Of a DNA stretch of 64,000 bases, positions 35,301 through 50,045 are shown piece by piece. The translations under genes were made by a program, and so were the position numbers. Within the stretch, counting starts at the first letter, position 1. The number at the start of each line of letters is the position of its first letter. The notes beneath the pieces were generated by a model. The model did no database searches, was not told the origin of the DNA, and saw nothing but the letters and a program-made list of their open reading frames with translations. Source of the stretch: an uncultured delta proteobacterium. GTDB taxonomy: Bacteria > Desulfobacterota > Binatia > UBA9968. The stretch is from positions 384,001-448,000 of the forward strand of contig CAWFJP010000030.1 in the NCBI GenBank assembly GCA_963816145.1. The letters are read 5' to 3'.

Positions 35301-35636
35301 TGGTCAGAACCACAGGTTGGAAAACCTGCCCCGGCCATCGAAGCCGATTTTTACTACATCGCGCCGCGCTGGTCCGACGGCCCGCTGGTCACAGAATCCT
35401 ACGATCGCGAAGGATTGAGCGGCAACCTCGGCGCCGCCACTAAAGCGACCATCGAGTATCTCGCCAATGGCGTGCACCAGGGCCGTTACTTCATCCACCG
35501 CGGCGAGCATTGCGGCCGCTGCGAGGTCGCCACCATCTGCCGCAAGAATCATCCGCCAAGCCTGTGGCGCGCTGAAAACGATCCGCTAACCGAACCGCAT
35601 TACGCTTTGCGCGCCAAAGATCCGAAAAAGCTATGA
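32388..35636 (+). CDS. addB: AddB/RexB-like helicase-nuclease subunit
   Basis: Inactive helicase-like body; LSPTALETYARCPFQFF, RGRMDRID, VIDYK, CGRCEVATIC (Fe-S staple Cys). Confidence 0.8.
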   Translation: MQTVLGPFHPDLENALVDAISQHKQADLLRPLLILVPSDLIRRRLKILLAQERGLALLNVQLLTFHQLSLRLNGECGSAPTELHSDLFLEEALRQIIRTGKPGAQPFAGVEDRAGGCAALWQTLRDLRDGLVDPELALTALGEGHFTERTGVRTAQLLELLQTLQTFCDEQDIKDLADLDRRATEQAPSSPFLQQFKEIFYYGFYDLTQIQLDFFRAVASHYPTRLFFPLLTAIPGHDAWNFAARFYERYVQGRAAELAGESDSPHALPANARLFDGDKGRSYAKPDKQWQCKIVNTFGIEDEVATAAKEIVRLIDDGKLAFNEIGVVARGLESYGTVIRDRFAQHRIPLAGRLEEPLVLFPLTKSVILLLNLPAKDFLRSQVIDLLSSPYFQLPKLAAEPTNARPDLWDLATRELVICKGVSEWRRLRRFTQRDLLLRQISDDDEARVIQITTAQLLSLADVVDALVADLAGLPNQATWQEYSTRWKALLEKYLGIASMDETGTAAASPSQAILGVLGELAGLDKISDKVSLGDFSHTFEHWLERTTVSDDRRNRDGVMVLGATAARGLSFRALFVLGMNEGVFPRTIREDAFLRDRDREVLETDLGYKVNQKLTGYDEEKLLFTLLVGAAGERLYCSYQRADDNGRALAPSWYVEELRQALVGQGRQCEIVTIPRSLIEKSTIPPFDRQDLLLPDELAIRLTLENQDPTSLIEATGNLPALYQQGRKIVGELDRSGDRLLGYDGLVGELAAYWKHFAERGLSPTALETYARCPFQFFARHVLGLQPLERPEEILGPNPAEFGELGHEILNGFYAALMDGGYFAGKAAAMNTETTLLAVASRACAEYEANNPVGYPLAWETLKEGLIQLLRQVTTKDLEELSISGFVPVSLETDMARSVPDDWPDGVKRLTIRGRMDRIDQNTRDGNALRVIDYKFKFGGAQATQDKNLVRAALRGERLQPPFYYLLAEAWSEPQVGKPAPAIEADFYYIAPRWSDGPLVTESYDREGLSGNLGAATKATIEYLANGVHQGRYFIHRGEHCGRCEVATICRKNHPPSLWRAENDPLTEPHYALRAKDPKKL

Positions 35637-38600
35637 GCGGAAATCCAGAAAAAATAGCGCTGCCTGACACCCGCGACCGCCAAATCGCGGTCGGCACCTT
35701 CGACCACAATCTAGTCGTCACCGCCGGCGCGGGCACCGGCAAGACCACCTTGCTGGTGGACCGGCTGGCGCATTTGATTTTGCGCGACCCCGAACCGGTC
35801 AAAATTACCGAGATCGTCGCCCTGACCTTTACCAACAAAGCCGCCGATGAAATGAAGTTACGCCTGCGCGAGCGTTTGCAGACTTACCTCGCCGTCGAGC
35901 TCGACCGCCAACCGGAAAGCGACGCTGAACGGAAAACCTTTCACGCTGTCGAAGAGTTGATCGCCCGCTACCGGCTCTCCAAGGATGACATGGACGGGCG
36001 CATGCGCGAGGCTCTGCGTAATCTGGAACGCAGCGACATCGGCACGATCCATAGCTTCGCGGCGAATTTACTCCGTCTCTATCCCATCGAAGCCGGCGTC
36101 GACCCGCAGTTCCGCGAGGACGAAGGCAGCGAATTCGACCGTCTGTTCGACGAACAATGGGACGCCTGGCTCGATCAGGAACTGGCGCTCGCGAGCCCGC
36201 GCGCCGAAGATTGGCGCAAAGTGCTCGCCCGCTGCCAGCTCGATCAAATCAAAGCTCTCGCTCGCTCGCTCTCGGCGGAAACCGTCGAACTCAATCAAGA
36301 GCCGGCGCAAGGGATCGCCGCGCCGCTGCGCGATTGGCTCGGTAAATTAGCCGCCCTAGCCGCCGCTTTGGACGCGCGCCATCCCGAAGACCGGATGAAT
36401 GAAAAACTCGTGCGGGCCGCCCACGCAGTGATCTACGAGTTTGAAAAATCTGGCCGACGCTCGGAAGACTTGACCGATTGCTACAAGCTCCTGGCGGAAA
36501 AGTCCGTCAGCCGCACTTTGAAAGGCTGGTCTGCCGAGGACAGCGCCGCAGCCCAAGAACTGGTGCGCGCCGCCAAAGGCTTGACCGGCGTCGACGGCGA
36601 GTTTACCGCTTTACTTTGGCGTCTGCTCACGCCCTACGCCGAAGCGTTTCGCGAGCGCTTCCTGCGCGATGGCCATATCTCTTTCGACGGCCTGCTGGTG
36701 CGCGCGCGTAACCTGGTGCGCGATCACCAGCGTGTGCGCGCCGAACTCAAGCGCCGCTACCGGACGATCTTGATCGACGAGTTTCAGGACACCGACCCGA
36801 TCCAATATGAGATTCTGCTCTACCTGGCCGAACAGCCCGACCAGAGCGTGTCGGACTGGCGCAAAATTAAATTGGCACCGGGTAAATTGTTTGTCGTCGG
36901 CGATCCGAAACAATCGATCTACGCCTTCCGCCGCGCCGACATCGAAGCCTATTTGGAAGTGGTCGAGAAGATCGTCCTGGCGCAAGACGGCATCGAATGC
37001 CGGCTGACGACAAACTTCCGCAGTGACGGCGCCATCCTCGACGTCGTCAACGGTGCCTTTGAAACATCTCATCCAAGCGCAACCAGGCTTGCAGCCACCT
37101 TACATCGCCATCGAGCCCGCGCCGGGCCGCGCCAGCATCTCAGGCTCGCTGGCAAAACTATCAGTGAGAAAAATTATCGCTCCCGACGACCAGACCGACG
37201 CCGAAACCGCTCGACGCATCGAAGGCGAAAGTTTGGCGCGCTGGTTGAAAGAATTAGTGTTGGGCAAGGCGCAAATCTTGAACGCCCGCGGCGAGACCGT
37301 CCACGCCCAACCTAAAGATATCGCCATCCTGATGCGCAAGTTGACCGACATCCACGATTACTTGGAGCCGTTTCGCCGCCAGGGTATCCGCTACGTCGTC
37401 GAAGGCGAACGCCATTTCTACGCCGCCAAAGAAATTATCGACGCGGTTAACTTACTACGTGCGGTGGAGAACCCCTACGACCGCCTGGCTCTGGTAGGCG
37501 TACTGCGTTCGCCTCTGGGTGGCCTCACCGATCTACAGATTTACCAGCTACACCGGCAAAATCGGCTCGACTATCGCGACAGTGCTAAGCTCGGCAGTGA
37601 AGGACTTTCCGGCAACGCTGACGCAGCTCTATCAGGCGCTGACCCAACTCAATGTCGAAACCAGAACACTGCCCATCGGCGCCGCCGTCGATCGCATATT
37701 TTCAACTTTGCCCGTGGAGCTGCTCGCCGCCTGTCATTTCCACGGCGAGCAGGCGGTGGCCAATTTGGCCAAGCTGCGCCAGCAGGCCGAACAACTCGGC
37801 CGCGAGGGATTAACCACGCTCAAGGCTGCGATCCGCCAGCTCGAACAGCGCGTCCTCGACGTCAAAGACGAAGGCGAAAGTGTGCTCGCCGAAGAAAACT
37901 TGGACGCCGTGCGCATCATGAGCATCCACAAGGCAAAAGGGTTGGAATTTTCCATCGTCATCCTCGCCGGCTGCCAGACCGGCACCGAAGGACGCCACAG
38001 CGCCGAAGCTGAGTCCACTTTCGACTGGTCGACCGGACTCACCGGCACCCGCGTCGGCCAGGCCGCCGATCTCGCCGGCCTCTACATCGCCGAGAAGAAT
38101 CGCTTGCGCAACCTTGAAGAACAAAAACGGCTGCTCTACGTCGCCATGACCCGCGCGCGCGAGCATCTGGTTCTCTCTTGCGCGCCCGCCAACCGGCGCT
38201 CCGGCGGCAGCTTTCAAGCGATGCTCGACACGACGCTAGGCAACAGCATCGCCGGCGCGGAATCCTCCACCCGCGTCGCCCTTGGCAAAGGCATGGTCAA
38301 GATCGAAGTCGTCCATCAAAGTCTCAGCGCGCCCAGCCATGCGCCGGCCAAAGCCAAACGCCCGAAGAAAAAGCCCAACTGGAAACCCTATATAGAAAAG
38401 TGGGCGCGCCGGACGGAAATTTTTGACAAGGCGCAACAGACCACGCCGTTTCTCACGCCGACGCTGCTCAAACGCCAGGAAGACGCGAGCAGCGAAGCTG
38501 GTGATAAGCTCAACATCCAAGCCGCCGCGCAACACTCCGGCGCTAGTGGTCGGCGATCTGACGCACCGATTTTTGCAGTCATGGCAGTTTGACGGCGAGA

Positions 38601-39052
38601 CATCGAATCTCAATGAGCAATTGCGCAGTTTCATCGACGGTGCTTTGCCGGCGGAATTCGTTTCAGAGCGTAGCGAGATCGTAACCGAGCTGCACGAGAT
38701 ATTGGAAAATTTTTTCCACTCGAAGGCCTACGCCGAACTCGTTGGGGCCAAGATCCTCGGCCGCGAAGTGCCGCTGCTGATGCCGTGGCAGGATCAGATC
38801 ATGGAAGGCGTCATCGATTTGATCTACGAGAAAGACGGCTTGCTTTACCTGGCCGACTATAAGACAGATAGAATTAAACGCAGCGAATTGCGCGCCGGCG
38901 CCGAGCGCTATTGTCAGCAGGCGGAGATTTATATCGAGGCGGTGAGAAAAAGTTTGGGCCGCCAAGTAGCCGCGTTCAAGCTAATTTTTCTCCGCGTGGG
39001 CGAAGCGATTGAAGTCGGAACCAAGTCGAACGCAGAATTGACGCTGTTTTAG
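35633..39052 (+). CDS. addA: AddA/RexA-like UvrD helicase-nuclease (three apparent +1 frameshifts)
   Basis: AGAGTGKT, TFTNKAA, TIHSF, IDEFQDT, VGDPKQSIYAFR; continues in successive frames to MSIHKAKGLEF, LLYVAMTRA, EGVIDL...DYKTD; breaks near 37070, 37595 and 38510. Confidence 0.8.
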
Positions 39053-39838: not shown

Positions 39839-39881
39839 GTACCTTGAAAATCCCGCAGTTAGTGCGGGATTTTCAAGGTAC
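39839..39881. repeat. Perfect 19-bp inverted repeat with 5-nt loop
   Basis: GTACCTTGAAAATCCCGCA-gttag-TGCGGGATTTTCAAGGTAC. Confidence 0.9.
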
Positions 39882-39989
39882 GGCCGGCAAACCTAAACAC
39901 TGCTAATTCGCCGAGCCAAAGAGGCAAACCCGATCGTCTAACACTAACTCAAGGCGAGCAGCACCACCGGAAGCGACCGCCCATGTCGT

Positions 39990-40018
39990 TTGACTCCCTA
40001 TCTCTCAGACTATAAATT
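39990..40018 (+). promoter_or_regulatory. Putative sigma70 promoter of the cupin-eutA operon
   Basis: TTGACT-N17-TAAATT. Confidence 0.45.
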
Positions 40019-40126
40019 GAGCGAATAAATCCACCGGTCTTCGGCAGTTTCGTCGTTAGCCGAGTCCGCAGATTCAGATCGCAAACGTAACCGATCAATT
40101 CAAAGTCAGATTTCTTAGGAGGCATT

Positions 40127-41323
40127 ATGGATCATCCCACCGAGTCGACATTCAATGAACCGACAGACAAAAAGACCAGGGCTGGCCTTGGCAAATTTCT
40201 CCGGCCCAATACACCCTACGACGACTTCATGGAAGCGCAGGGCATCCCGATCTTTCGCGATATCGGCGTGCGCCGGGTGCAGGACTTGCCGCGCAAGCCG
40301 TGGAAACGCATGGGCGGCAACGGCACGTTCATTCAGCTGCTCGGTACCGAGGGGCTGTGGGGCTGCTACGTCGTCGAGGTTCCCGGCGCCGGCGCGTTGA
40401 ATCCCGAGAAGCACCTCTACGAAGAGCAATATCTGGTCGTCGACGGCCGCGGCACCACCGAAGTCTGGGTCGATGGTAATCCCAAGAAGTTGACCTTCGA
40501 ATGGCAAAAGGGTTCGATCTTTGCGATTCCGATGAATGCGACCCATCGCATCGTCAATGCGACTTCGAGCCCGGCGCTGCTGCTCGCCGGCACCACGGCA
40601 CCTAACATCATGAACAACTTCGGCAACGAAGATTTCATATTCAACTGCCCCTATCAGTTCAAAGACCGTTTCGATCCTAGCGACGACTATTTCAAATACA
40701 AAGAGGATGTCACACCGGATCCGGTGCGCGGCCTGGCCATGCGCATGACCAACATTATCCCGGACGTGATGGGCTGCGAACTGCCGATGGACAACCGCCG
40801 CTCGCCGGGCTATCGGCGTATCGAACCGCATATGGCCGGGCAGCATTTTTACTATTGGATCGGCCAGCATGAAACCGGCCGCTATTCGAAGGCCCACGCT
40901 CACGGCTCGGCCGCCGTGCTGATCTGTCTTAGCGGCAAAGGCTACACTTATACCTGGCCGTCGAAGTTGGGCACCAAACCCTGGGAGGCCGGCACTACTG
41001 AAGAAATCCGCCGCCAGGACTACGAGCCGGTCGGTATGGTCAGCGCCGCGCCCATGAGCGGCAACTGGTTCCACGCCCATTTCGGCGCCAGCAAAGAACC
41101 TCTGCGTCTCACCGCGTGGTTTGGCCCCAACGCGCCGGGCCGCGAACGCGGCCGACCGGGCGAAAAAGCGATCGATTACGGCGCCATCGATATGAAAGAT
41201 GGCGGCACGGCGATCCCCTACAACGAAGAAGATCCGTACTTGCGTAAAGAGTTCGAGGAAACCCTCGAGAAGGTCGGCGCCAAGTCGCGCATGGAACCGG
41301 ACCTCTACAAGAACTCCTACTAA
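40127..41323 (+). CDS. Bicupin protein (gentisate-dioxygenase-like architecture)
   Basis: Cupin 1 PEKHLYEE...GRG...IPMNATHRIVN; cupin 2 KAHAHG...GKGYT...NWFHAHF; AGGAGG RBS. Confidence 0.8.
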   Translation: MDHPTESTFNEPTDKKTRAGLGKFLRPNTPYDDFMEAQGIPIFRDIGVRRVQDLPRKPWKRMGGNGTFIQLLGTEGLWGCYVVEVPGAGALNPEKHLYEEQYLVVDGRGTTEVWVDGNPKKLTFEWQKGSIFAIPMNATHRIVNATSSPALLLAGTTAPNIMNNFGNEDFIFNCPYQFKDRFDPSDDYFKYKEDVTPDPVRGLAMRMTNIIPDVMGCELPMDNRRSPGYRRIEPHMAGQHFYYWIGQHETGRYSKAHAHGSAAVLICLSGKGYTYTWPSKLGTKPWEAGTTEEIRRQDYEPVGMVSAAPMSGNWFHAHFGASKEPLRLTAWFGPNAPGRERGRPGEKAIDYGAIDMKDGGTAIPYNEEDPYLRKEFEETLEKVGAKSRMEPDLYKNSY

Positions 41324-41325
41324 TC

Positions 41326-41392
41326 AGGTTTCGGGTTTGCGGTTTCGAGTTTCGGGTTAACACGACACCCGGGACTCGAGACCCGTAACCGT
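41326..41392. repeat. Inverted GTTTCGG heptamer arrays between cupin and eutA-like gene
   Basis: ggtttcgggtttgcggtttcgagtttcgggtt...acccgggactcgagacccgtaacc. Confidence 0.7.
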
Positions 41393-41443
41393 TCTCACTC
41401 CCAAACACTTTCCAAGATTGACTGAGATTTGTCAGGAAAAATT

Positions 41444-42928
41444 ATGGCCACCGCACCTAGAGGTTCGTTTTCCAATGCCAACCGCCACATGCAGGAGGAA
41501 GAAAACCTTCAGCTCACGAGTGTCGGCGTCGATATCGGCTCGTCGACTTCACACTTAGTTTTCTCCCGGCTGGAATTGACCCTCGAGGGATCGCGCTACA
41601 GGGTGACCAAGCGCGAAGTGATCAACGAATCGCAGATTTTGCTGACGCCCTACGTCGACGACACTAGGATCGATGTCGAGGCTCTAGGAAAATTCATCAA
41701 CGACCAATACAAGATCGCCAAAATTGACCGCGAACACGTCGACACCGGCGCGTTGATCCTCACCGGCGTCGCCGTGCGCCGGCGCAACGCCCGGGCAATT
41801 GGCGAACTATTCGCCCAGGAAGCCGGTAAATTTGTCGCGGTCAGCGCCGGGGACGGCCTCGAAGCGACCATGGCCGCCCATGGTTCGGGGGCCGTGGCGC
41901 ACTCGGCTAAAATGGGCGGCGTGGTTTTGAACATCGACATTGGCGGCGGCACCAGTAAGTTCGCCGTCTGCAACAATGGCAAGGTTCAGGAAGTCACGGC
42001 CATCGATGTCGGCGCGCGGTTGCTCGCGTTCGACCAGGACGGCGCGGTGGTGCGCATCGAGGAAGCCGCGCGCAAGCACGCCGGCTGGGCCGGCTTCTCT
42101 GTGGAAATGGGTCAGAAGATCTCGGACGAGAATCTGCGCAAAATGGTTTCCGGCATGATGGACAAGCTATTCGCCATGTTGAAACCGGAATCGGTGAATG
42201 ACGACATCAGATCGCTGCTGCGCCTGCCCCCGCTTACGTACACAGGTGAAATTGATTGCGTGATGTTTTCCGGCGGTGTGTCGGAGTTTATTTACAATCG
42301 CGCCAAGACCAGCTTCGGCGACCTAGGGCCGCTCATCGCCGACGAAGTGCACAAGCGTGCCGGCAGCCTGGGCCTTTTGATGATGGAGCCCAACGCGCGC
42401 ATCCGCGCCACGGTCATCGGCGCCTCGCAATATACCGTGCAGGTAAGCGGCAATACCATTTTCATCTCGCCGGACGACGCCGTTCCGGTGCGCAACATCG
42501 CGGTGGTCGCGCCGGAGTTTCCGCTCGGTCAAGATGAATTCACCAAGGATACGGTCCGTGATGCGCTGCTCAGCGCGCTGCGCCGTCTCGACCTGCTGCA
42601 CGGCCGCCAACCGGTCGCCGTGGCCTTTCACTGGGACGGCTCGGCGACCTTCGCGCGCCTGCAAGCGTTTTGCAGCGGCGTCGCCGAAGGGCTCAAAGAT
42701 ATTCTCGCCAAAGGTCATCCCTTGGTCTTGGTCAACGACGGCGACATCGGCGGCATCATCGGCCTGCACTGCCAGGAAGAACTGAAGTTGCAAAGTGCCA
42801 TCATCTCCATCGACGGCATCGCGCTCAGCGATTTCGATTTCATCGATGCCGGGGCCTTGATTCCGTCTTCCGGCGCCGTCCCGGTTGTTATCAAGTCGCT
42901 AATCTTCCCTGCTTCCCCGGAGAATTAA
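41444..42928 (+). CDS. eutA: EutA-like ASKHA ATPase (ethanolamine ammonia-lyase reactivase family)
   Basis: SVGVDIGSSTSHLVFSRL, TGALILTG, NIDIGGGT, FSGGV, IRATVIGA, VPVVIKSLIF. Confidence 0.85.
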   Translation: MATAPRGSFSNANRHMQEEENLQLTSVGVDIGSSTSHLVFSRLELTLEGSRYRVTKREVINESQILLTPYVDDTRIDVEALGKFINDQYKIAKIDREHVDTGALILTGVAVRRRNARAIGELFAQEAGKFVAVSAGDGLEATMAAHGSGAVAHSAKMGGVVLNIDIGGGTSKFAVCNNGKVQEVTAIDVGARLLAFDQDGAVVRIEEAARKHAGWAGFSVEMGQKISDENLRKMVSGMMDKLFAMLKPESVNDDIRSLLRLPPLTYTGEIDCVMFSGGVSEFIYNRAKTSFGDLGPLIADEVHKRAGSLGLLMMEPNARIRATVIGASQYTVQVSGNTIFISPDDAVPVRNIAVVAPEFPLGQDEFTKDTVRDALLSALRRLDLLHGRQPVAVAFHWDGSATFARLQAFCSGVAEGLKDILAKGHPLVLVNDGDIGGIIGLHCQEELKLQSAIISIDGIALSDFDFIDAGALIPSSGAVPVVIKSLIFPASPEN

Positions 42929-43357: not shown

Positions 43358-44941
43358 CTACAGGTCGTTGCCCGCGTAGGATAGATTGAAACTCTTATTC
43401 ACCAGCGGGAAATCGGGCACGATGTTTTTCAGAATGGCATAGTTGAGCGCCGGCCAATTGGCGAAGGAGGGATCCTTGATCTTAACTCGCCGGAGCGATT
43501 GGTTCTTGCCGCCGACCACCCAGTGCCATATCGGGCCGCGCCAACCTTCCACCAAGCCGAAGGCTCCTTCGCCTTCTGGAAGTGTGTCTAACGCCACGGC
43601 GAGCCTGCCGCTCGGCAACGCCTCAAGCGCCGACCCGATCAAACGCGACGCCTCACGCGCTTCTTCTACGCGCACCATCATTCGCGCCCATACATCTCCT
43701 TCAGCGTGCACGATCACCCGTGGTGGCAATGCTGAATAGGCGGCGAAGGGATGGTCGCGCCGCGCATCTGCGTCGATCCCGCTCGCCCGTGCCGGAACGC
43801 CGACCACCTGCATTTCGCGCGCGGTCTGTTGGTTCAATCGCCCGGTGCCGTGCAAACGATCAAGCACCAGGCCGTTGTTGGTCGCGATGTCAACAACCTG
43901 ATCGAAGTCGGCAATGATGCGGCTAATTGTGCTCAGCGCGTCGGCAATCTGCTCCGCATCGAAATCTCGCGTCACTCCGCCCGGAACCAGGGAATCACGC
44001 AAGAGCCGGTGGCCGAGCAAACGCATGTTCAGGCGAAATAGATCCTCGCGCAAGCGCAGCGCGTGCACATTGGCGAACGCAAATCCGGTATCCGTGCAAA
44101 TGGCGCCGACGTCGGCGATATGATTGTAGAGTCGTTCGAGTTCAAGCAGGACGACGCGCAGATACGCTGCGCGCGGTGGAATGATTACGCCGGCAAGCGT
44201 TTCAACGGCTTGACAAAAAGCCATGGCGTGCGCCACGCTCGAGTCGCCGGAGATGCGCTCGGCCAGTTTGACCCCTTGCGCGGGCGTGGCCGTCTCGAAA
44301 AGCTTCTCTATGCCCTTGTGAACAAAATACATGCGGGACTCAAGATTAATAATCGTTTCGCCTTCGACGCTGAAGCGAAAATGGCCGGGCTCGATGATGC
44401 CCGCGTGCACTGGGCCGACGGTGATTTCGTACAGCCCTTCACCTTCGACGCGGCGAAATGGATAGGGTTGGCCATCATCGGAAAAATCTTGGCGAGCGGT
44501 CGAGTCTTTCAACAAAGGATGATAATGGGCCGGCCAAAATTGGTGCAACGGCAAGCGGCGCAAATCGGGGTGTCGGGTCGGCACCAGTCCAAACAGGTCA
44601 TGAATCTCGCGCTCGAAACGGCTCGCGAGATACCAGCGCGTCGCGAGCGACGGGAATGTCGGATCCCCGGCGGGGACGCTGATTGAGGCGACGACGAACC
44701 CAGCGGCGCCGTCAACCTCAAAAACATAGCGCAAGGTGAAGGCTTTGGCTTCTAACCGGGTATCTTCGGCGACGATAAGTTCCGGACGAGCATGGACTTC
44801 CGCCCGCAGGTAATCGGCGAACCCGATCAGTGTCTCTCGCGGGACGCTGACACGCAGCTCACGCGGACTGCGCAGTTGGATATCGCTCGGATTCAGATTG
44901 GCGGCGACCAGCCGCTGCTTTAGCTCCTTCAAATCCGCCAT
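43358..44941 (-). CDS. Ehr large subunit (HycE/HyfG-like, NuoC+D fold, no NiFe-binding Cys)
   Basis: FEREIHDLFG, VGPVHAGIIEPGHFRF, HKGIEK; RISGDS in place of RxCGxC; KSFNLSY in place of DPCxxC. Confidence 0.88.
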   Translation of the reverse strand: MADLKELKQRLVAANLNPSDIQLRSPRELRVSVPRETLIGFADYLRAEVHARPELIVAEDTRLEAKAFTLRYVFEVDGAAGFVVASISVPAGDPTFPSLATRWYLASRFEREIHDLFGLVPTRHPDLRRLPLHQFWPAHYHPLLKDSTARQDFSDDGQPYPFRRVEGEGLYEITVGPVHAGIIEPGHFRFSVEGETIINLESRMYFVHKGIEKLFETATPAQGVKLAERISGDSSVAHAMAFCQAVETLAGVIIPPRAAYLRVVLLELERLYNHIADVGAICTDTGFAFANVHALRLREDLFRLNMRLLGHRLLRDSLVPGGVTRDFDAEQIADALSTISRIIADFDQVVDIATNNGLVLDRLHGTGRLNQQTAREMQVVGVPARASGIDADARRDHPFAAYSALPPRVIVHAEGDVWARMMVRVEEAREASRLIGSALEALPSGRLAVALDTLPEGEGAFGLVEGWRGPIWHWVVGGKNQSLRRVKIKDPSFANWPALNYAILKNIVPDFPLVNKSFNLSYAGNDL

Positions 44942-46390
44942 CTATACTCCCAAAACTTTCAGCACTTGCTGGAGCGCGGTTACAAACGGGGAGGGTAGGG
45001 TGAGTCCCAGCACAACCAAGACTATGAAATTCGCGGCGAGGGGCGCGAGCCACAGCCGCAGCGCATCACCGCGCGGGAGATCAGTCGGAGGCTCGCCGTA
45101 TAACATTCCATTCACGCTCGCCAACATTCCCCCGAAAACGATGACGAGAAGGATCACGCCTGTTCCCGCCGCCCACGGTTGGCTCGCAAAGCCGGCGCGA
45201 AAAATCATGAACTCGCTAATGAACGGCGCAAACGGCGGCAAGCCGATCAGCGCAAGTGTGCCGGCGAGAAAAAGCGCGCCGGTCCACGGCGCCACCTGCA
45301 ACAGTCCACGCACCTCGCGAATTTCCGCACTGTGATATTTGAGTAGAATATTGCCCGAAAGAATGAAGAGCAGCGATTTCGACAGCGCATGATTGACCAC
45401 ATGGAAAAGCGCGCCGAAGATCCCCCAATACCCGCCGAAGCCCAAACCGAGGCAAATGATACCGATGTGTTCGACGCTCGAATAGGCCAGCATTCGTTTA
45501 TAGTTGCGCTGGCTGACCAAGAAAAACGCCGCAACCAGAAGTGAGAACAACCCTACGCCGATCAACAAACGCGCGGCAAATTCCGGCCCGACCGCCACAT
45601 CGACGACCGCCTTGAATCGTATCATTGCATACAAGCCGACGTTGAGCAGTACTCCCGACATCAGCGCGCTGATCGGTGCAGGCGCTTCGCTATGCGCGTC
45701 CGGTAGCCACGTATGCATCGGCGCGAGCCCCGCCTTCGTTCCATAGCCGATGACGATGAACACGAACGCCAGCCGTACCACCTCAGGATTGAGTGACCCC
45801 GCGGCGGCGCGCAGCGCGCTCCAATTGACGGCGATTTCACCGGCCTTTGCGGCCCCGGCGTAGTACACCAGCGCGGTGCCGATAAACGCGAGCGCGATGC
45901 CCACGGACGACAAAATCAAATACTTGTAAGCGGCTTCGAGTGAGGTACGAGTCTGGTGCAAATTGACCAGAAACACCGTCGCCAGGGTCGTTCCTTCAAT
46001 GGCGACCCACATCACGCCGAGATTATCCGTCGTCACCGCCAAGAGCATGGTGAAAATAAACAGCTGGAAGAGCGCGAAGAACAACCGCGCGCGCGACAAA
46101 TGCTCGCCGTCGAATTCGGCGCGGATGTAGCCGACCGCGTAAAGCGAAGCGATCGCGCCGAGAAAAGTAATGATGGCGATCATGAAAGCGGACAACGCGT
46201 CAACGCGAAATAGATCACGGACTGCGCTGAGGACTGCACCGTTCCACACCTGGGCGACGATGACCGCTCCCGTGGCCAACGTTGCCAGTCCCGCCAGGGT
46301 GTGCAACAGTTCGATCAGCGCACGCCGGCGGGCGACAGCGATCAGCCCCGCCGCCGCGAGCGGTATTAGCAGCAAACTAACCAGTATCAT
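44942..46390 (-). CDS. hyfF: HyfF-like antiporter-like membrane subunit
   Basis: WVAIEGTTL, EAAYKY, GYGTKAGLAPMHTWLPDAHSEAP, KRMLAYSSVEH. Confidence 0.87.
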   Translation of the reverse strand: MILVSLLLIPLAAAGLIAVARRRALIELLHTLAGLATLATGAVIVAQVWNGAVLSAVRDLFRVDALSAFMIAIITFLGAIASLYAVGYIRAEFDGEHLSRARLFFALFQLFIFTMLLAVTTDNLGVMWVAIEGTTLATVFLVNLHQTRTSLEAAYKYLILSSVGIALAFIGTALVYYAGAAKAGEIAVNWSALRAAAGSLNPEVVRLAFVFIVIGYGTKAGLAPMHTWLPDAHSEAPAPISALMSGVLLNVGLYAMIRFKAVVDVAVGPEFAARLLIGVGLFSLLVAAFFLVSQRNYKRMLAYSSVEHIGIICLGLGFGGYWGIFGALFHVVNHALSKSLLFILSGNILLKYHSAEIREVRGLLQVAPWTGALFLAGTLALIGLPPFAPFISEFMIFRAGFASQPWAAGTGVILLVIVFGGMLASVNGMLYGEPPTDLPRGDALRLWLAPLAANFIVLVVLGLTLPSPFVTALQQVLKVLGV

Positions 46391-47061
46391 TCTTTCAATT
46401 TTTCCAATTCGCCGACGTCGATCGAGTCGAAATTATCCTTGATGCGATAGACAAATACTTCCATGATCAGCACGGCGACCAGCACGTCGAGAAAGACCCC
46501 CATTTCGACGATGAAGGGCACGCCGTACGTCGCCAAGAGGGCGAGCAAGAAGATGCCGTTTTCCAACATGAGGAATCCAAGAATCTGCGTCACCGCCCGG
46601 CGGCGATTGACCATGATAAAGAAACCAATCAGGACGCCGGCGAACGCGAGCGGGATGGCATCTGCCGTGGGCAAAGAATTCGAAGCGGCGATAGGGGTCA
46701 TCACGTAAAACGATAGGATCGTGAGTATGCCGCAGATAATGAGCGCCGGCGCGGTCCCCAGATACGGCGCCGCAACTCGCGCCAGGCCGATCTTTGCCAC
46801 GGCGCGATTGAGTACGCGAGGAATCATGATGGCTTTGACGACCACAAGCGCAACGCCGACGCCGAACAATTCGAGACTACCGCTGTAGAGCGCGATCAGC
46901 ATGGAGAGCATGGCGAGCACGAACGATTGCAATCCGAACACGCGCACCTGTCCCTCCAGACTGCTTCGGACAATCAGCAAGATGGTCAATCCGAGGGCGA
47001 CAAACGCCAGCAGATTGACCGCCTTGGACAGCACTTCAGCAGACATAGCAATTCCCATCAT
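46387..47061 (-). CDS. hyfE: HyfE-like membrane subunit
   Basis: QILGFLMLENGI, PFIVEMGVFLD. Confidence 0.85.
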   Translation of the reverse strand: MMGIAMSAEVLSKAVNLLAFVALGLTILLIVRSSLEGQVRVFGLQSFVLAMLSMLIALYSGSLELFGVGVALVVVKAIMIPRVLNRAVAKIGLARVAAPYLGTAPALIICGILTILSFYVMTPIAASNSLPTADAIPLAFAGVLIGFFIMVNRRRAVTQILGFLMLENGIFLLALLATYGVPFIVEMGVFLDVLVAVLIMEVFVYRIKDNFDSIDVGELEKLKE

Positions 47062-48002
47062 TTGATAAAAAACGCGGTCACTACGGCCAACAACGCGATC
47101 GTAAACGACCCGGCTAAAAGTGCCGGCACACGGAAAAGACGGAGCTTGGCGACCGCTGTTTCCACTAACGCAATGGCCAACGCGAAAAGCACAAGTTTAA
47201 CGGCAAGCGCGAGAAAAGCCCCAACGAGGGCGACCGGCGTGTTCGCCAGCGCGACGCCCCAGGGAAAAAACAAGTTCGACAACAACGTCAAGAACAAAAA
47301 CAATTTCATCGCAGCCGCCCATTCCACCAGCGCGAGTAGATGGCCGGAATATTCCAAGATCATCGCTTCGTGAATCATCGTCAGTTCGAGATGAGTGGCG
47401 GGATTGTCCACCGGCAATCGCCCGTTTTCCGCCAGCGCAACAATGAAGAACGCAAAGAACGCGAGCAAATGCCCTGCGTTTAACATCAAGAGCGGCTCGG
47501 CGGCAAAACGCGTGATGATGCCATCGAGACTGGTCGTGCCGGCACGCAGAGCGATACCGAAAATCGCGATCAACACGGTGGGCTCGGCCAGCGCGGCAAG
47601 GGCAACCTCGCGGCTCGATCCCATGCCTCCAAAAGCGCTCCCCGCGTCCAACCCCGCCAGCGCAAGAAAGAAGGTGCCGAGCAATAATAGATACATCAGA
47701 GCGATGATGTTGCCCATGAAGCCGAGCGGAGCGCGGGTCGTCAGCACCGGGACGATGAGCGCCGACAAGAGCATCGTCGTGGCCAGCAGGTAGGGCGTGA
47801 AGCGAAAGATCCAAGAGGTATTTTCGGAAACCACCACCTCTTTCAAAAGCAATTTCCGAATGTCGGCGTAAGGCTGCAAAATACCCGCGCCGCGACGCCC
47901 CTGCAGGCGCGCCTTCGCCTTGCGGATCACGCCGACAAGCAAGGGCGATCCGAACATGACGATAAGCAGCTGCAACAGCTGGATTACTATTTCTGTAAGC
48001 AT
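47058..48002 (-). CDS. hyfC: HyfC/HycD (NuoH-like) membrane subunit
   Basis: KARLQGRRG, QPYADIRKLL, GSSRE, ENGRLPVDNPATHLELTMIHEAMILEYSG. Confidence 0.9.
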   Translation of the reverse strand: MLTEIVIQLLQLLIVMFGSPLLVGVIRKAKARLQGRRGAGILQPYADIRKLLLKEVVVSENTSWIFRFTPYLLATTMLLSALIVPVLTTRAPLGFMGNIIALMYLLLLGTFFLALAGLDAGSAFGGMGSSREVALAALAEPTVLIAIFGIALRAGTTSLDGIITRFAAEPLLMLNAGHLLAFFAFFIVALAENGRLPVDNPATHLELTMIHEAMILEYSGHLLALVEWAAAMKLFLFLTLLSNLFFPWGVALANTPVALVGAFLALAVKLVLFALAIALVETAVAKLRLFRVPALLAGSFTIALLAVVTAFFIK

Positions 48003-48044
48003 AGGCCGTTCTCGTAAGTATTACGCATTTCTCGGGCGGCGGGA

Positions 48045-50045
48045 CTACACCGTCAGGATTAATAACGCGACGAGCGCCACTAAAATATAAACCAGATAAC
48101 TGTGTACGTTGCCCGATTGTAAGGCGCGCGCCGCGCGCGCCAATGCCTGAATCAGGCGTAGAAGCGGCCTATACAGTGTGTCTTCAAAGACCGAGCGTCC
48201 TTCGTTGTAATACGCGATGGTGCGCACGAAATAACGCGACTCGGGGTGAAACTCGATGTCGAGCTGCTTGACCGGGCGATACAACAAAGCGAAAACGCGC
48301 TTAAAGGGATTAGCGAAGGCGGTTGCGGTGTATTCAAAACGCGCCGTCTGTAGCGCGCGCCCGCAGCCCCAGGTCTCGTAGTAGCGGCGCCACTTGTTGA
48401 CACCCATCAGGCGCAGCGCAAGCGGAATCGCTACCAGAAAAACGACAAGTCCGAGTGCGATCCACAACGGCGCGACCCAGCCGAACCCGTCGTTGGCCAC
48501 AACCGCGTTCCAATCGAAGTGCATGTCGGCGTGCCCGCCCATGAGATCGAAGACCGTCGCTTCGAGTGGCGCCAGTATCAGCGATGGCGCAACGCCGAGG
48601 ACGACACACACGAGCGCCAGCAGCGCCATGGCCGCGCGCATCGTCCATGCGACTTCGCGCGCAAGCGCGGCGGGATCGCTCCGCGGCAGGGCCAGGAAGG
48701 TGATGCCGAAAGCCCTGACAAAACACGCCGCGGCGAGGCCGCTCGTCAGTGCGAGGGCGGCGACGCCGAGCGCGAAAATCAAATTGACCTGTGCGCGGCG
48801 ATCTGAAAACTCAACAGCAGCGACTGAACCGTTAGCCATTCACTGTAAAACCGATGAACCGGGGGGCGGGGAATGCCAATGAACCGATCAGGAAGAAGAC
48901 CGCTGTTTGCGGCATGCACTTAATGAGTCCGCCCAGTTCTTCCATATTTCGCGTATGAGTCGCGTGCAGAACCGCACCGGCGCCCATGAACAGCAGGCTC
49001 TTGAACGCGGCGGACTAAGCGGGTGATAAAGGGCTGCCACGAGCGCCAGCGCTGCCAGGCCCGGCAAACTAAACGCCTGGAACAACATTGCAGCACCCAG
49101 ACCGAGCATAATAATGCCGATGTTTTCGACACTGGAGTACGCCAGCAAGCGTTTCAAATCGGCGTCGATCAGCGCATACAGGACGCCAAGCACCCCCGAG
49201 ACCGCCCCGACGATGAGCAACGTCGCGCCCCACCACAGCGGCCCGGATCGCAACCAGCAAAAGCGACGGGCATCAGGCGTCACACCGAGCTTAATCATCA
49301 CACCGGAACAGCGCGGAAACGTGACTGCCGGCAGGATGGGCCACGGCACAGACATGCTCCGGTTGGCCCGCTTTGGACCCGACGCCCAGCGCTGAACATA
49401 CAAAAAATCAAGTTGCGTGAGGTTGTGTCGAGTTTGCCCGCCGCCGCGCCCCATTGGGCGAAAGACATTGTCCCGGTGGCCTGCGCTAACAACAGGAACC
49501 CCACCAACAACGCAGCAAATCCCGCGTGGGTCATGACAAAGTAAACCCAGCCTGCACGCAGCGTCTCCTCGCGCTCGCGTTCCGTAATCACCAAAAAATA
49601 TGATGCCAGCGACATCAGTTCCCAAAGCACAAGAAACGTCAGCACGTTGCGCGCCAGCGCGACGAGAATCATCGCTGCGACAAAAACGTTGAATGCGAAT
49701 GCCATCCGGCGAGCGAATGTTTACCGCCGTCTCTCGCGTAAAGACCGATCGAGTCACCCCGGACGGGATTGCCAACGGCAATGACCAGCGCGAAAAACGC
49801 ACCAGCCGGACTCGCCGAACGCGGCGACGCCGTCGGCAGCAGATCTGGCTGTTAAGTTCCATACTGCTGAAAGCGAGCCGGACACAGAACACAATTGCCG
49901 CGATGGGCCAGCCACGCACTTGTTTATCCGCGACGCGAGAGCGAGTTGGCGAGCGCGCTGTAACCAACGCGCCGACTGTGCCCGCGCTGAAACAAGCGAA
50001 GGTGACAAGGAACAAATCGACCATCAAGGTTGAATCAATGATCAT
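48045..50045 (-). pseudogene. hyfB: HyfB-like antiporter subunit, heavily frameshifted in this sequence
   Basis: Motifs in alternating frames: FLVLWELMSLASYFLV, SGVMIKLG, DLKRLLAYSSVENIGII, ACFVRAFGITFL.LPRS, WGCG, LQSGNVHSYL. Confidence 0.75.

Follow-up and report, generated by a model that had tools for sequence, protein, structure and literature searches.

The window analysed here is a stretch of 64,000 nucleotides from an uncultured delta proteobacterium (GTDB lineage Bacteria; Desulfobacterota; Binatia; UBA9968), corresponding to positions 384,001 to 448,000 of the forward strand of contig CAWFJP010000030.1 in GenBank assembly GCA_963816145.1. The subject of this report is a pair of adjacent genes within it, one encoding a bicupin of an uncharacterised family and the other an ASKHA ATPase of the EutA family, and the question of which enzyme this ATPase serves. 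The features of the pair and of its immediate surroundings are listed below, with positions counted from the first letter of the window.

Positions 39990 to 40018, + strand: sigma-70-like promoter site TTGACT-17-TAAATT, a consensus match only, in the 450-bp spacer 5' of the bicupin gene.
Positions 40117 to 40122, + strand: putative AGGAGG ribosome-binding site, read from the sequence, 4 nt 5' of the bicupin ATG.
Positions 40127 to 41323, + strand: bicupin gene, 398 aa, uncharacterised family, from the open reading frame (ORF) and from profile and paralog searches.
Positions 40295 to 40594, + strand: N-terminal cupin barrel, residues ~57-156, whose candidate ligands H96, E99/E100 and H140 vary across the family.
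Positions 40736 to 41122, + strand: C-terminal cupin barrel, residues ~204-332, which holds the invariant His of the family.
Positions 40889 to 40906, + strand: cupin motif 1 of the C-terminal barrel, KAHAHG (H257, H259), with Ala or Gly at the usual Glu ligand position.
Positions 41066 to 41083, + strand: cupin motif 2 of the C-terminal barrel, WFHAHF (H316, H318), from the alignment.
Positions 41338 to 41387, + strand: intercistronic RNA hairpin predicted by folding, with a stem of ~20 bp and no T-run after it.
Positions 41429 to 42928, + strand: EutA-family ASKHA ATPase gene, ORF from TTG 41429 (499 aa), probable start ATG 41444 (494 aa).
Positions 41468 to 41515, + strand: conserved acidic N-terminal motif FSNANRHMQEEENLQL, preceding the ASKHA core; it is absent from E. 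coli EutA and replaced in paralogs by a His/Asp-rich segment.
Positions 41522 to 41554, + strand: ASKHA phosphate-1 motif VGVDIGSSTSH (D35 and G37 invariant), from the alignment.
Positions 41927 to 41959, + strand: ASKHA phosphate-2 motif LNIDIGGGTSK (D170, G172 and G173 invariant), from the alignment.
Positions 42266 to 42289, + strand: ASKHA adenosine motif FSGGVSEF (G282 and G283 invariant), from the alignment.
Positions 42461 to 42898, + strand: C-terminal alpha/beta domain of the EutA family, residues ~345-490, which few structural matches reach.

The bicupin and EutA-like ORFs are consecutive and on the same strand in the ORF list of the window, and the observation of a bicupin gene followed by a gene for an EutA-family ASKHA ATPase was upheld, both genes being confirmed as real. 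ATG 41444 was taken as the probable start of the ATPase because close homologues are 494-495 aa long and begin MATAPRG, and because AGGA precedes this codon. The 5' neighbour of the bicupin gene is a PolB-exonuclease-like gene, separated from it by the 450-bp spacer with the promoter-like site, and the 3' neighbour of the ATPase gene is a STAS-domain gene on the opposite strand; the pair was therefore read as a bicistronic operon, which agrees with the two-gene unit described in the first-pass annotation and leaves the flanking genes outside it. Three sigma-70-like consensus matches were found in the upstream spacer, against 1.4 expected from shuffles. The intercistronic hairpin had a predicted folding energy of -40.8 kcal/mol (z -3.1; none of 200 shuffles was as stable) and could set the ratio of the bicupin and ATPase products. 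Soil metatranscriptome contigs covered parts of both genes with 0-4 differences (libraries X15/X16, which are one data set filed twice, X17, and X19). One of these contigs, from the X15/X16 data set only, extends from 41221 to 41394, spanning the bicupin stop codon and ending just past the hairpin. The stretches left uncovered likewise come from that one data set. The contigs were taken as a hint of expression, since DNA carry-over is possible in such libraries.

The ATPase was assigned to the EutA family in the broad sense. PF06277 matched it over its full length, from position 2 to 474 of 475, with 387.1 bits (cut-off 27), and its alignment with E. coli EutA (b2451) spanned 486 columns at 33% identity (E 7e-63). 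With the ATPase as query, about 800 clusters defined at 50% identity were matched with an E of at most 1e-30. All three ATP-site motifs (phosphate-1, phosphate-2 and adenosine) were intact and invariant across 35 aligned family members, and the earlier description of a full-length EutA-family protein with complete ATP motifs therefore stands. Three rows, with a wrong frame (L024), an over-long start (L021) or a probable frameshift (L028), were dropped in alignment. The predicted model (pLDDT, the predicted local distance difference test, 84.9) showed the ASKHA fold followed by the C-terminal alpha/beta domain, so that both hallmarks of the superfamily, a duplicated RNase-H-like fold and the three ATP motifs, were present. 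An acidic motif of the form F-S/T-x-x-x-R-H-I/M-x-E-E-D/E-E-I/L was common to the clade of the window ATPase and to many other cupin-linked ATPases. The ATPase scored under the cut-off of each of the four NCBIfam EutA equivalog models, NF007991-NF007994 (322 against 598, 243.4 against 769, 221.2 against 952, and 188 against 799). By score, by co-occurrence with EutBC and by position in the tree, the last two described below, it falls outside the EutA reactivases proper.

The genome that contains the window comprises 7.8 Mb in 31 contigs and was estimated at 99.47% completeness and 6.72% contamination. No EutB and no EutC was found in it by profile searches, tblastn with E. coli EutB and EutC returned no match, and no bacterial microcompartment shell protein was detected; the earlier statement that eutBC and microcompartment genes are absent from the window thus extends to the whole genome. 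The MM_CoA_mutase family, whose control was positive in 8 of 14 genomes, was likewise without a match, as was the diol dehydratase family PF02286, for which the control was silent everywhere too. EutB was absent from all 41 sampled genomes of the same order and from three distant genomes that carry the pair, and no EutB or EutC match lay within 4 kb of the pair region at any of the 80 wide loci described below. The genome is larger than five sampled genomes of the same genus (3.9-5.7 Mb), and its bin may be a mixture or include surplus DNA; four EutA-like genes are nonetheless a typical count for the genus.

Conservation of the pair was assessed within the class and order of the source organism, where the close homologues come from metagenome-assembled genomes labelled Candidatus Binatia. 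In a sample of 121 genomes of the class, the EutA family and the bicupin family occurred in the same 15, each a member of the window's order; neither was present in the remaining 106 genomes, which represent 16 other taxonomic families. All 41 genomes of the order (3 families, 11 genera) carried both families, with 2-9 EutA-like and 4-45 bicupin genes each. An orthologous cupin (73-96% identity) lay directly 5' of the EutA-like gene on the same strand in 38 of them, with coordinates compared by eye and with the cupin split or cut by a contig end in three (G122, G130, and G139). The other three genomes (G140, G146, and G123; 95%, 98%, and 81% complete) were without the cupin ortholog, and their best ATPase identity was at most 48%, against at least 63% for orthologs; presence or absence of the two orthologs was concordant in 41 of 41 genomes. 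For nine neighbouring proteins of the window, no match lay beside the pair in any of three genomes drawn from the two other families. Since the flanking genes are not shared between families, the pair alone travels together.

A wider search with a 6-row alignment as query, against one genome per species, returned at least 556 stretches encoding relatives, of which 80 loci were kept by their likeness to non-canonical queries. These loci were labelled Chloroflexota/Dehalococcoidia, Alpha- and Betaproteobacteria, Binatia, 'Deltaproteobacteria' and Thermodesulfobacteriota. A hidden Markov model of the bicupin family placed a bicupin directly upstream on the same strand at 60 loci and elsewhere within 4 kb at four; there was none at 14, and two had too little upstream DNA. 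Cupin adjacency, which had been named as a check on the pairing, was therefore conserved both in the order and across several phyla. No third gene recurred with the pair at more than eight of the 80 loci. The largest neighbour cluster, with eight members, was an alpha/beta hydrolase, and molybdenum-hydroxylase subunits, TctC and other binding proteins, UbiD, and major facilitator superfamily transporters also recurred. A NicO-type transporter gene lay near the pair at three loci, all labelled betaproteobacterial or Pseudomonadota; nickel was considered as the metal of the window pair and rejected, given this rarity and the lack of a homologue in the window's genome. Among the carriers is a cultured, non-pathogenic organism, Aromatoleum toluclasticum ATCC 700605, with three EutA-like genes and three bicupin genes on one scaffold within ~20 kb and no EutB in its genome; UbiD, a binding protein, a NicO-type transporter and an IclR regulator are encoded nearby. 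A 2.9-Mb Dehalococcoidia genome encodes 43 bicupins and four EutA-like proteins, most of these bicupins being without an adjacent ATPase.

A FastTree phylogeny of 113 EutA-family rows was used to place the window ATPase; the method is a quick one, only four rows are canonical, and the loci had been picked as stated above. On one side of a branch of length 1.73 (support 100) lay E. coli EutA with three fusion proteins (to EutB or EutH), and on the other the remaining 109 rows, which include all 75 cupin-adjacent proteins of the tree. The window ATPase belongs to a clade of 16 rows (support 96), all of them cupin-adjacent, and it thus groups with proteins independent of eutBC, as had been predicted. 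Pairwise identities of ATPase and cupin were strongly correlated over 73 adjacent pairs (r = 0.913, with none of 999 Mantel permutations as high), a value to which shared species history contributes; two of the 75 pairs were dropped when their cupins, one of them the divergent L042, failed a length or E-value filter. For 14 of 14 pairs from four multi-pair genomes, the best cross-genome partner of the ATPase and that of its cupin came from the same locus, and the pairs have therefore been duplicated and inherited as units. Neither of the outcomes that the first-pass annotation had named as speaking against a cupin-linked ATPase, namely eutBC in the genome with a canonical grouping or an adjacency that is not conserved, was found, and its proposal that the ATPase is coupled to the cupin is supported.

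The bicupin has the architecture of its superfamily, two jelly-roll barrels on one chain, and no family name was found for it. Pfam matches were confined to generic cupin models in the N-terminal half (Cupin_2, 36.2 bits), no curated NCBIfam family fitted (the sole match, NF049978, scored 16.7 bits against a cut-off of 650), and the best phmmer match among PDB sequences had an E of 0.66. Foldseek matched the model to the generic bicupins MncA, OxdC and vicilins with template-modelling scores of 0.39-0.47, and matches in the ESM Atlas were to 'cupin domain-containing protein' clusters only. Alignments with paralogs and homologues showed that the invariant His residues of the family are H257, H259, H316 and H318, all in the C-terminal barrel. 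The protein had been called His-rich, which is incorrect, as only 10 of 398 residues (2.5%) are His. Gentisate and salicylate 1,2-dioxygenases (PDB 3bu7 and 2phd) are among the closest known systems and are defined by a three-His Fe(II) site in the N-terminal barrel; membership was rejected, since the N-terminal barrel of the bicupin has no HxH (PEKHLYEE), its His is not invariant, and no curated model matched. Oxalate decarboxylases and MncA-type manganese bicupins are defined by a His-His-Glu-His ligand set in the barrels, which the bicupin does not have, and this assignment was rejected as well. Paired and unpaired cupins share the same conserved residues; one minor column (A307) distinguishes them and is not informative as a mark of pairing. 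The bicupin is probably a metal-dependent enzyme with a conserved site of H257, H259, H316 and H318.

Paralogs of both genes were located in the window's genome, which encodes four full-length EutA-family proteins and 21 bicupins (E 1e-37 or better), 18 of the latter without an adjacent ATPase. The second EutA-like gene (L015, contig C17) has a bicupin gene 5' of it and directly follows F-type ATP synthase genes, an arrangement seen in 3 of 3 genomes examined (also L037 in G047 and L047 in G113). The third (L016, C14:339915-344084) is followed by two genes for haem-oxygenase-like proteins of di-iron type (PF14518) and then by a bicupin gene. The fourth (L014, C2:174858-176279) has no cupin nearby and lies between DUF4175 and TPR genes. 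Counterparts of this orphan type, with His/Asp-rich N- and C-terminal segments (L014, L033, L038, and L046), adjoin a large DUF4175 protein and a TPR protein in three of four genomes, the neighbours of L033 lying outside the Pfam scan, which took in 75 of 136 listed ORFs around EutA-like genes and left out the high-GC loci L033, L035 and L036, where antisense ORFs had been picked. Judged by top scores, the orphan type seems to be present throughout the order. Over four genomes with 24 EutA-family genes, a bicupin gene was immediately upstream of 15, three genes downstream of one, and absent from the neighbourhood of eight. Those eight comprised four of the orphan type, two between Opp-type ABC transporter genes and an Amidohydro_2 gene (L043 in G047 and L051 in G113), and two divergent members of ~192 bits (L045 in G047 and L052 in G113); the conserved cluster around these last two also contains UbiD, a class II aldolase, a CDC48-like double AAA ATPase and three small ORFs. 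His/Asp-rich N- or C-terminal segments occur on three of the four EutA-like proteins of the genome and on several representatives elsewhere. Around the other bicupin paralogs, where 119 of 151 ORFs were scanned, solute-binding proteins, UbiD, Amidohydro_2, Rieske/LigXa oxygenases, molybdenum hydroxylases and FAA hydrolase are encoded, and from this company the paralogs look like members of clusters for the breakdown of aromatic compounds. Thirteen longer EutA-family relatives comprised four fusions to MFS_3, four to EutB, one to EutH, one to a methyltransferase, and three others. In the MFS_3 fusions (P0325, P0391, P0393, and P0394, one from Pseudonocardiaceae) the EutA-like domain is 41-43% identical to that of the window, and an MFS_3 gene also lies two genes away from a pair in L050.

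With moderate confidence, we propose that the EutA-like protein is a dedicated ATP-driven chaperone, a maturase or reactivase, for the His site in the C-terminal barrel of the bicupin. The ATPase would bind the immature or inactivated bicupin, binding and hydrolysis of ATP would open the latter, and a wrong, oxidised or missing metal ion at the buried His site could then be released or replaced. EutA and the diol-dehydratase reactivase DdrA are ATP-using reactivases of their B12 enzymes, and the proposed action would follow the same logic with a metal ion in place of cobalamin. The results show the gene pair, its independence from ethanolamine ammonia-lyase, its conservation and co-divergence, the intact ATP motifs and the conserved His site; that the partners bind, that ATP is hydrolysed, which metal and substrate are involved and in which direction the ATPase acts is what we infer. 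An accessory factor fits better than an obligate catalytic subunit because most bicupins are unpaired and have the same conserved residues; the ratios of many bicupins to few ATPases (21:4 in the window's genome, 45:9 and 43:4 elsewhere) and the lack of residues specific to paired cupins favour an accessory role in the same way.

Several observations weigh against this proposal. The genomes of the class are kin, and the co-occurrence of the two families among them amounts to about a single evolutionary event, while strict one-to-one co-divergence fits an obligate two-subunit enzyme equally well. A His/Asp-rich segment that would suggest carriage of metal is absent from all 16 members of the window ATPase's clade, the window protein included; of the 75 cupin-adjacent ATPases sampled, 10 had at least four His in the terminal segments, and of the 32 non-adjacent ones, 14 did. 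No NicO-type homologue was found in the window's genome at E 1e-5, and no metal transporter is linked to the pair here. A cupin-EutA fusion was absent from the 13 longer relatives, which is a weak null, and a sequence search for a solved EutA structure found none. Prediction of a complex between bicupin and ATPase, one of the checks proposed earlier, lent the pairing weak support, with a score of 0.48 (runs 0.51, 0.43, and 0.48) against 0.00 for the best of three controls, with at least 64% of contacts agreeing between runs and a partner pLDDT of at least 81. Of 157 solved complexes, 116 reached the mark, as did 2 of 215 mismatched pairs; with a score of 0.60 or less, only 18 of the 157 did so, along with both mismatches that passed, so that 0.48 falls where, short of a high prior, a passing score is wrong more often than it is right. 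The genomic prior being strong, the prediction adds a little. A His-rich tail was also considered as a feature of the window ATPase and was rejected as absent.

The alternative that survives best, which we nevertheless consider unlikely, is an obligate two-subunit ATP-dependent enzyme in which the ASKHA subunit phosphorylates or activates the substrate and the cupin carries out the metal-dependent step. ASKHA subunits of the hydantoinase/oxoprolinase and acetone-carboxylase types perform ATP-dependent phosphorylation or activation of substrates, the nearest folds to the window ATPase are phosphatase- and kinase-like, and both the strict pairing and the lack of a metal-carrying segment on this ATPase fit such an enzyme. 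Against it count the 18 of 21 bicupin paralogs here, and most of the 43 in the Dehalococcoidia genome, that have no adjacent ATPase, particularly as the unpaired cupins keep the invariant residues and A307 is the sole separating column. To our knowledge, the only characterised member of the EutA family is a chaperone-type reactivase, and EutA-like genes also adjoin Amidohydro_2 and UbiD genes, which suggests a helper activity that is independent of the client.

A redox reactivase on the model of RACo and the activators of 2-hydroxyacyl-CoA dehydratase, with hydrolysis of ATP driving the re-reduction of Fe(III) to Fe(II) in a dioxygenase-type cupin, appears considerably less probable still. The window ATPase has four Cys, none of them invariant, and no Cys is conserved in the 35 aligned members, which makes an Fe-S cluster of the kind found in known ATP-driven electron activators unlikely; nor was a ferredoxin or flavoprotein conserved beside the pair among the neighbour clusters of the 80 loci. 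An ordinary EutA-type reactivase of an adenosylcobalamin enzyme encoded elsewhere, with the cupin an unrelated neighbour, would account for the full-length PF06277 match, the 33% identity to E. coli EutA and the EutA name carried by relatives in public sources, but this role is contradicted by the lack of EutB, EutC and MM_CoA_mutase in the genome and of EutB in the order, by scores under all four NCBIfam cut-offs, by the long branch from canonical EutA and by the conserved adjacency and co-divergence with the cupin, and it was given almost no credence.

The proposal of a chaperone for the bicupin can be extended, more tentatively, to the non-canonical EutA clade as a whole. The clade might be a widespread class of ASKHA-fold factors for the maturation or repair of metal centres, unrelated to the known GTPase metallochaperones. 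Dedicated copies would each serve one bicupin; the many unpaired bicupins, and perhaps amidohydrolase-fold and UbiD enzymes as well, would be served in trans by copies that are orphan or His-rich. Entire expanded families of metalloenzymes for aromatic degradation in soil bacteria would then depend on such an ATPase.

Further observations concern the surroundings of the pair. A perfect 20-bp inverted repeat, GGTACCTTGAAAATCCCGCA ... TGCGGGATTTTCAAGGTACC, occupies 39839-39883 in the spacer between the exonuclease-like gene and the promoter region of the bicupin, and may be a terminator or a repeat element. On the 5' side, a helicase-nuclease-like gene is broken into four overlapping ORFs in different frames (35633-37315, 37023-38012, 37519-38592, and 38423-39052, + strand). 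Downstream, 43358-50045 on the - strand holds a cluster resembling a hydrogenase-4/formate-hydrogenlyase membrane complex, with large-subunit-like and antiporter-like subunits, in which a membrane-subunit gene is in two parts (48045-48839 and 48888-50045). These translations and ORF breaks were read by eye, and the split ORFs at 35633-39052 and 48045-50045 are either frameshift errors of the assembly or pseudogenes.

Relatives of the ATPase carry the public label 'ethanolamine ammonia-lyase reactivating factor EutA' in organisms that are unable to have that function. If maturation or repair of a cupin metal centre is their role, it would constitute a new route of metalloenzyme maturation and widen the idea of a reactivase beyond B12 enzymes; we conjecture that it could also be a reason why such bicupins would be hard to obtain in active form in heterologous hosts. 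The module marks large, unstudied expansions of bicupins (21 here, up to 45 in relatives, and 43 in the 2.9-Mb Dehalococcoidia genome), and these are probably important where aromatic compounds of plant origin are degraded in soil and wetlands. The cultured A. toluclasticum ATCC 700605 makes the question testable. No description of a cupin/EutA-like pairing was found in the full-text literature covered, from which subscription journals were largely absent; the name eutA is also used there for an unrelated ectoine gene.

Among known systems, E. coli EutA has the same full-length domain architecture and the same ASKHA ATP motifs as the window ATPase, which is likewise a dedicated partner gene beside the gene of its presumed client enzyme. 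Unlike EutA, the window ATPase occurs in a genome without EutBC or microcompartment genes and in a sampled order without EutB, its presumed client is a cupin metalloenzyme and not a B12 enzyme, and it has the additional conserved acidic motif at its N-terminus. DdrA, the alpha subunit of the diol/glycerol dehydratase reactivase (PDB 2d0o), has the fold alone in common with it, at 14% identity, and neither the beta-subunit partner nor the B12 client of DdrA accompanies the window ATPase. The G3E GTPases (UreG, HypB and the COG0523 family) are metallochaperones for sites that bind metal weakly or are prone to mis-metallation. The proposed nucleotide-driven delivery or exchange of metal in a client would resemble their action, as do the His-rich segments on some ATPase paralogs; unlike them, the window ATPase has an ASKHA fold in place of a P-loop GTPase fold and carries no His-rich segment. 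The comparison suggests that, while the PF06277 family itself is known, a reactivase-family ATPase with a new class of client is what the pair adds.

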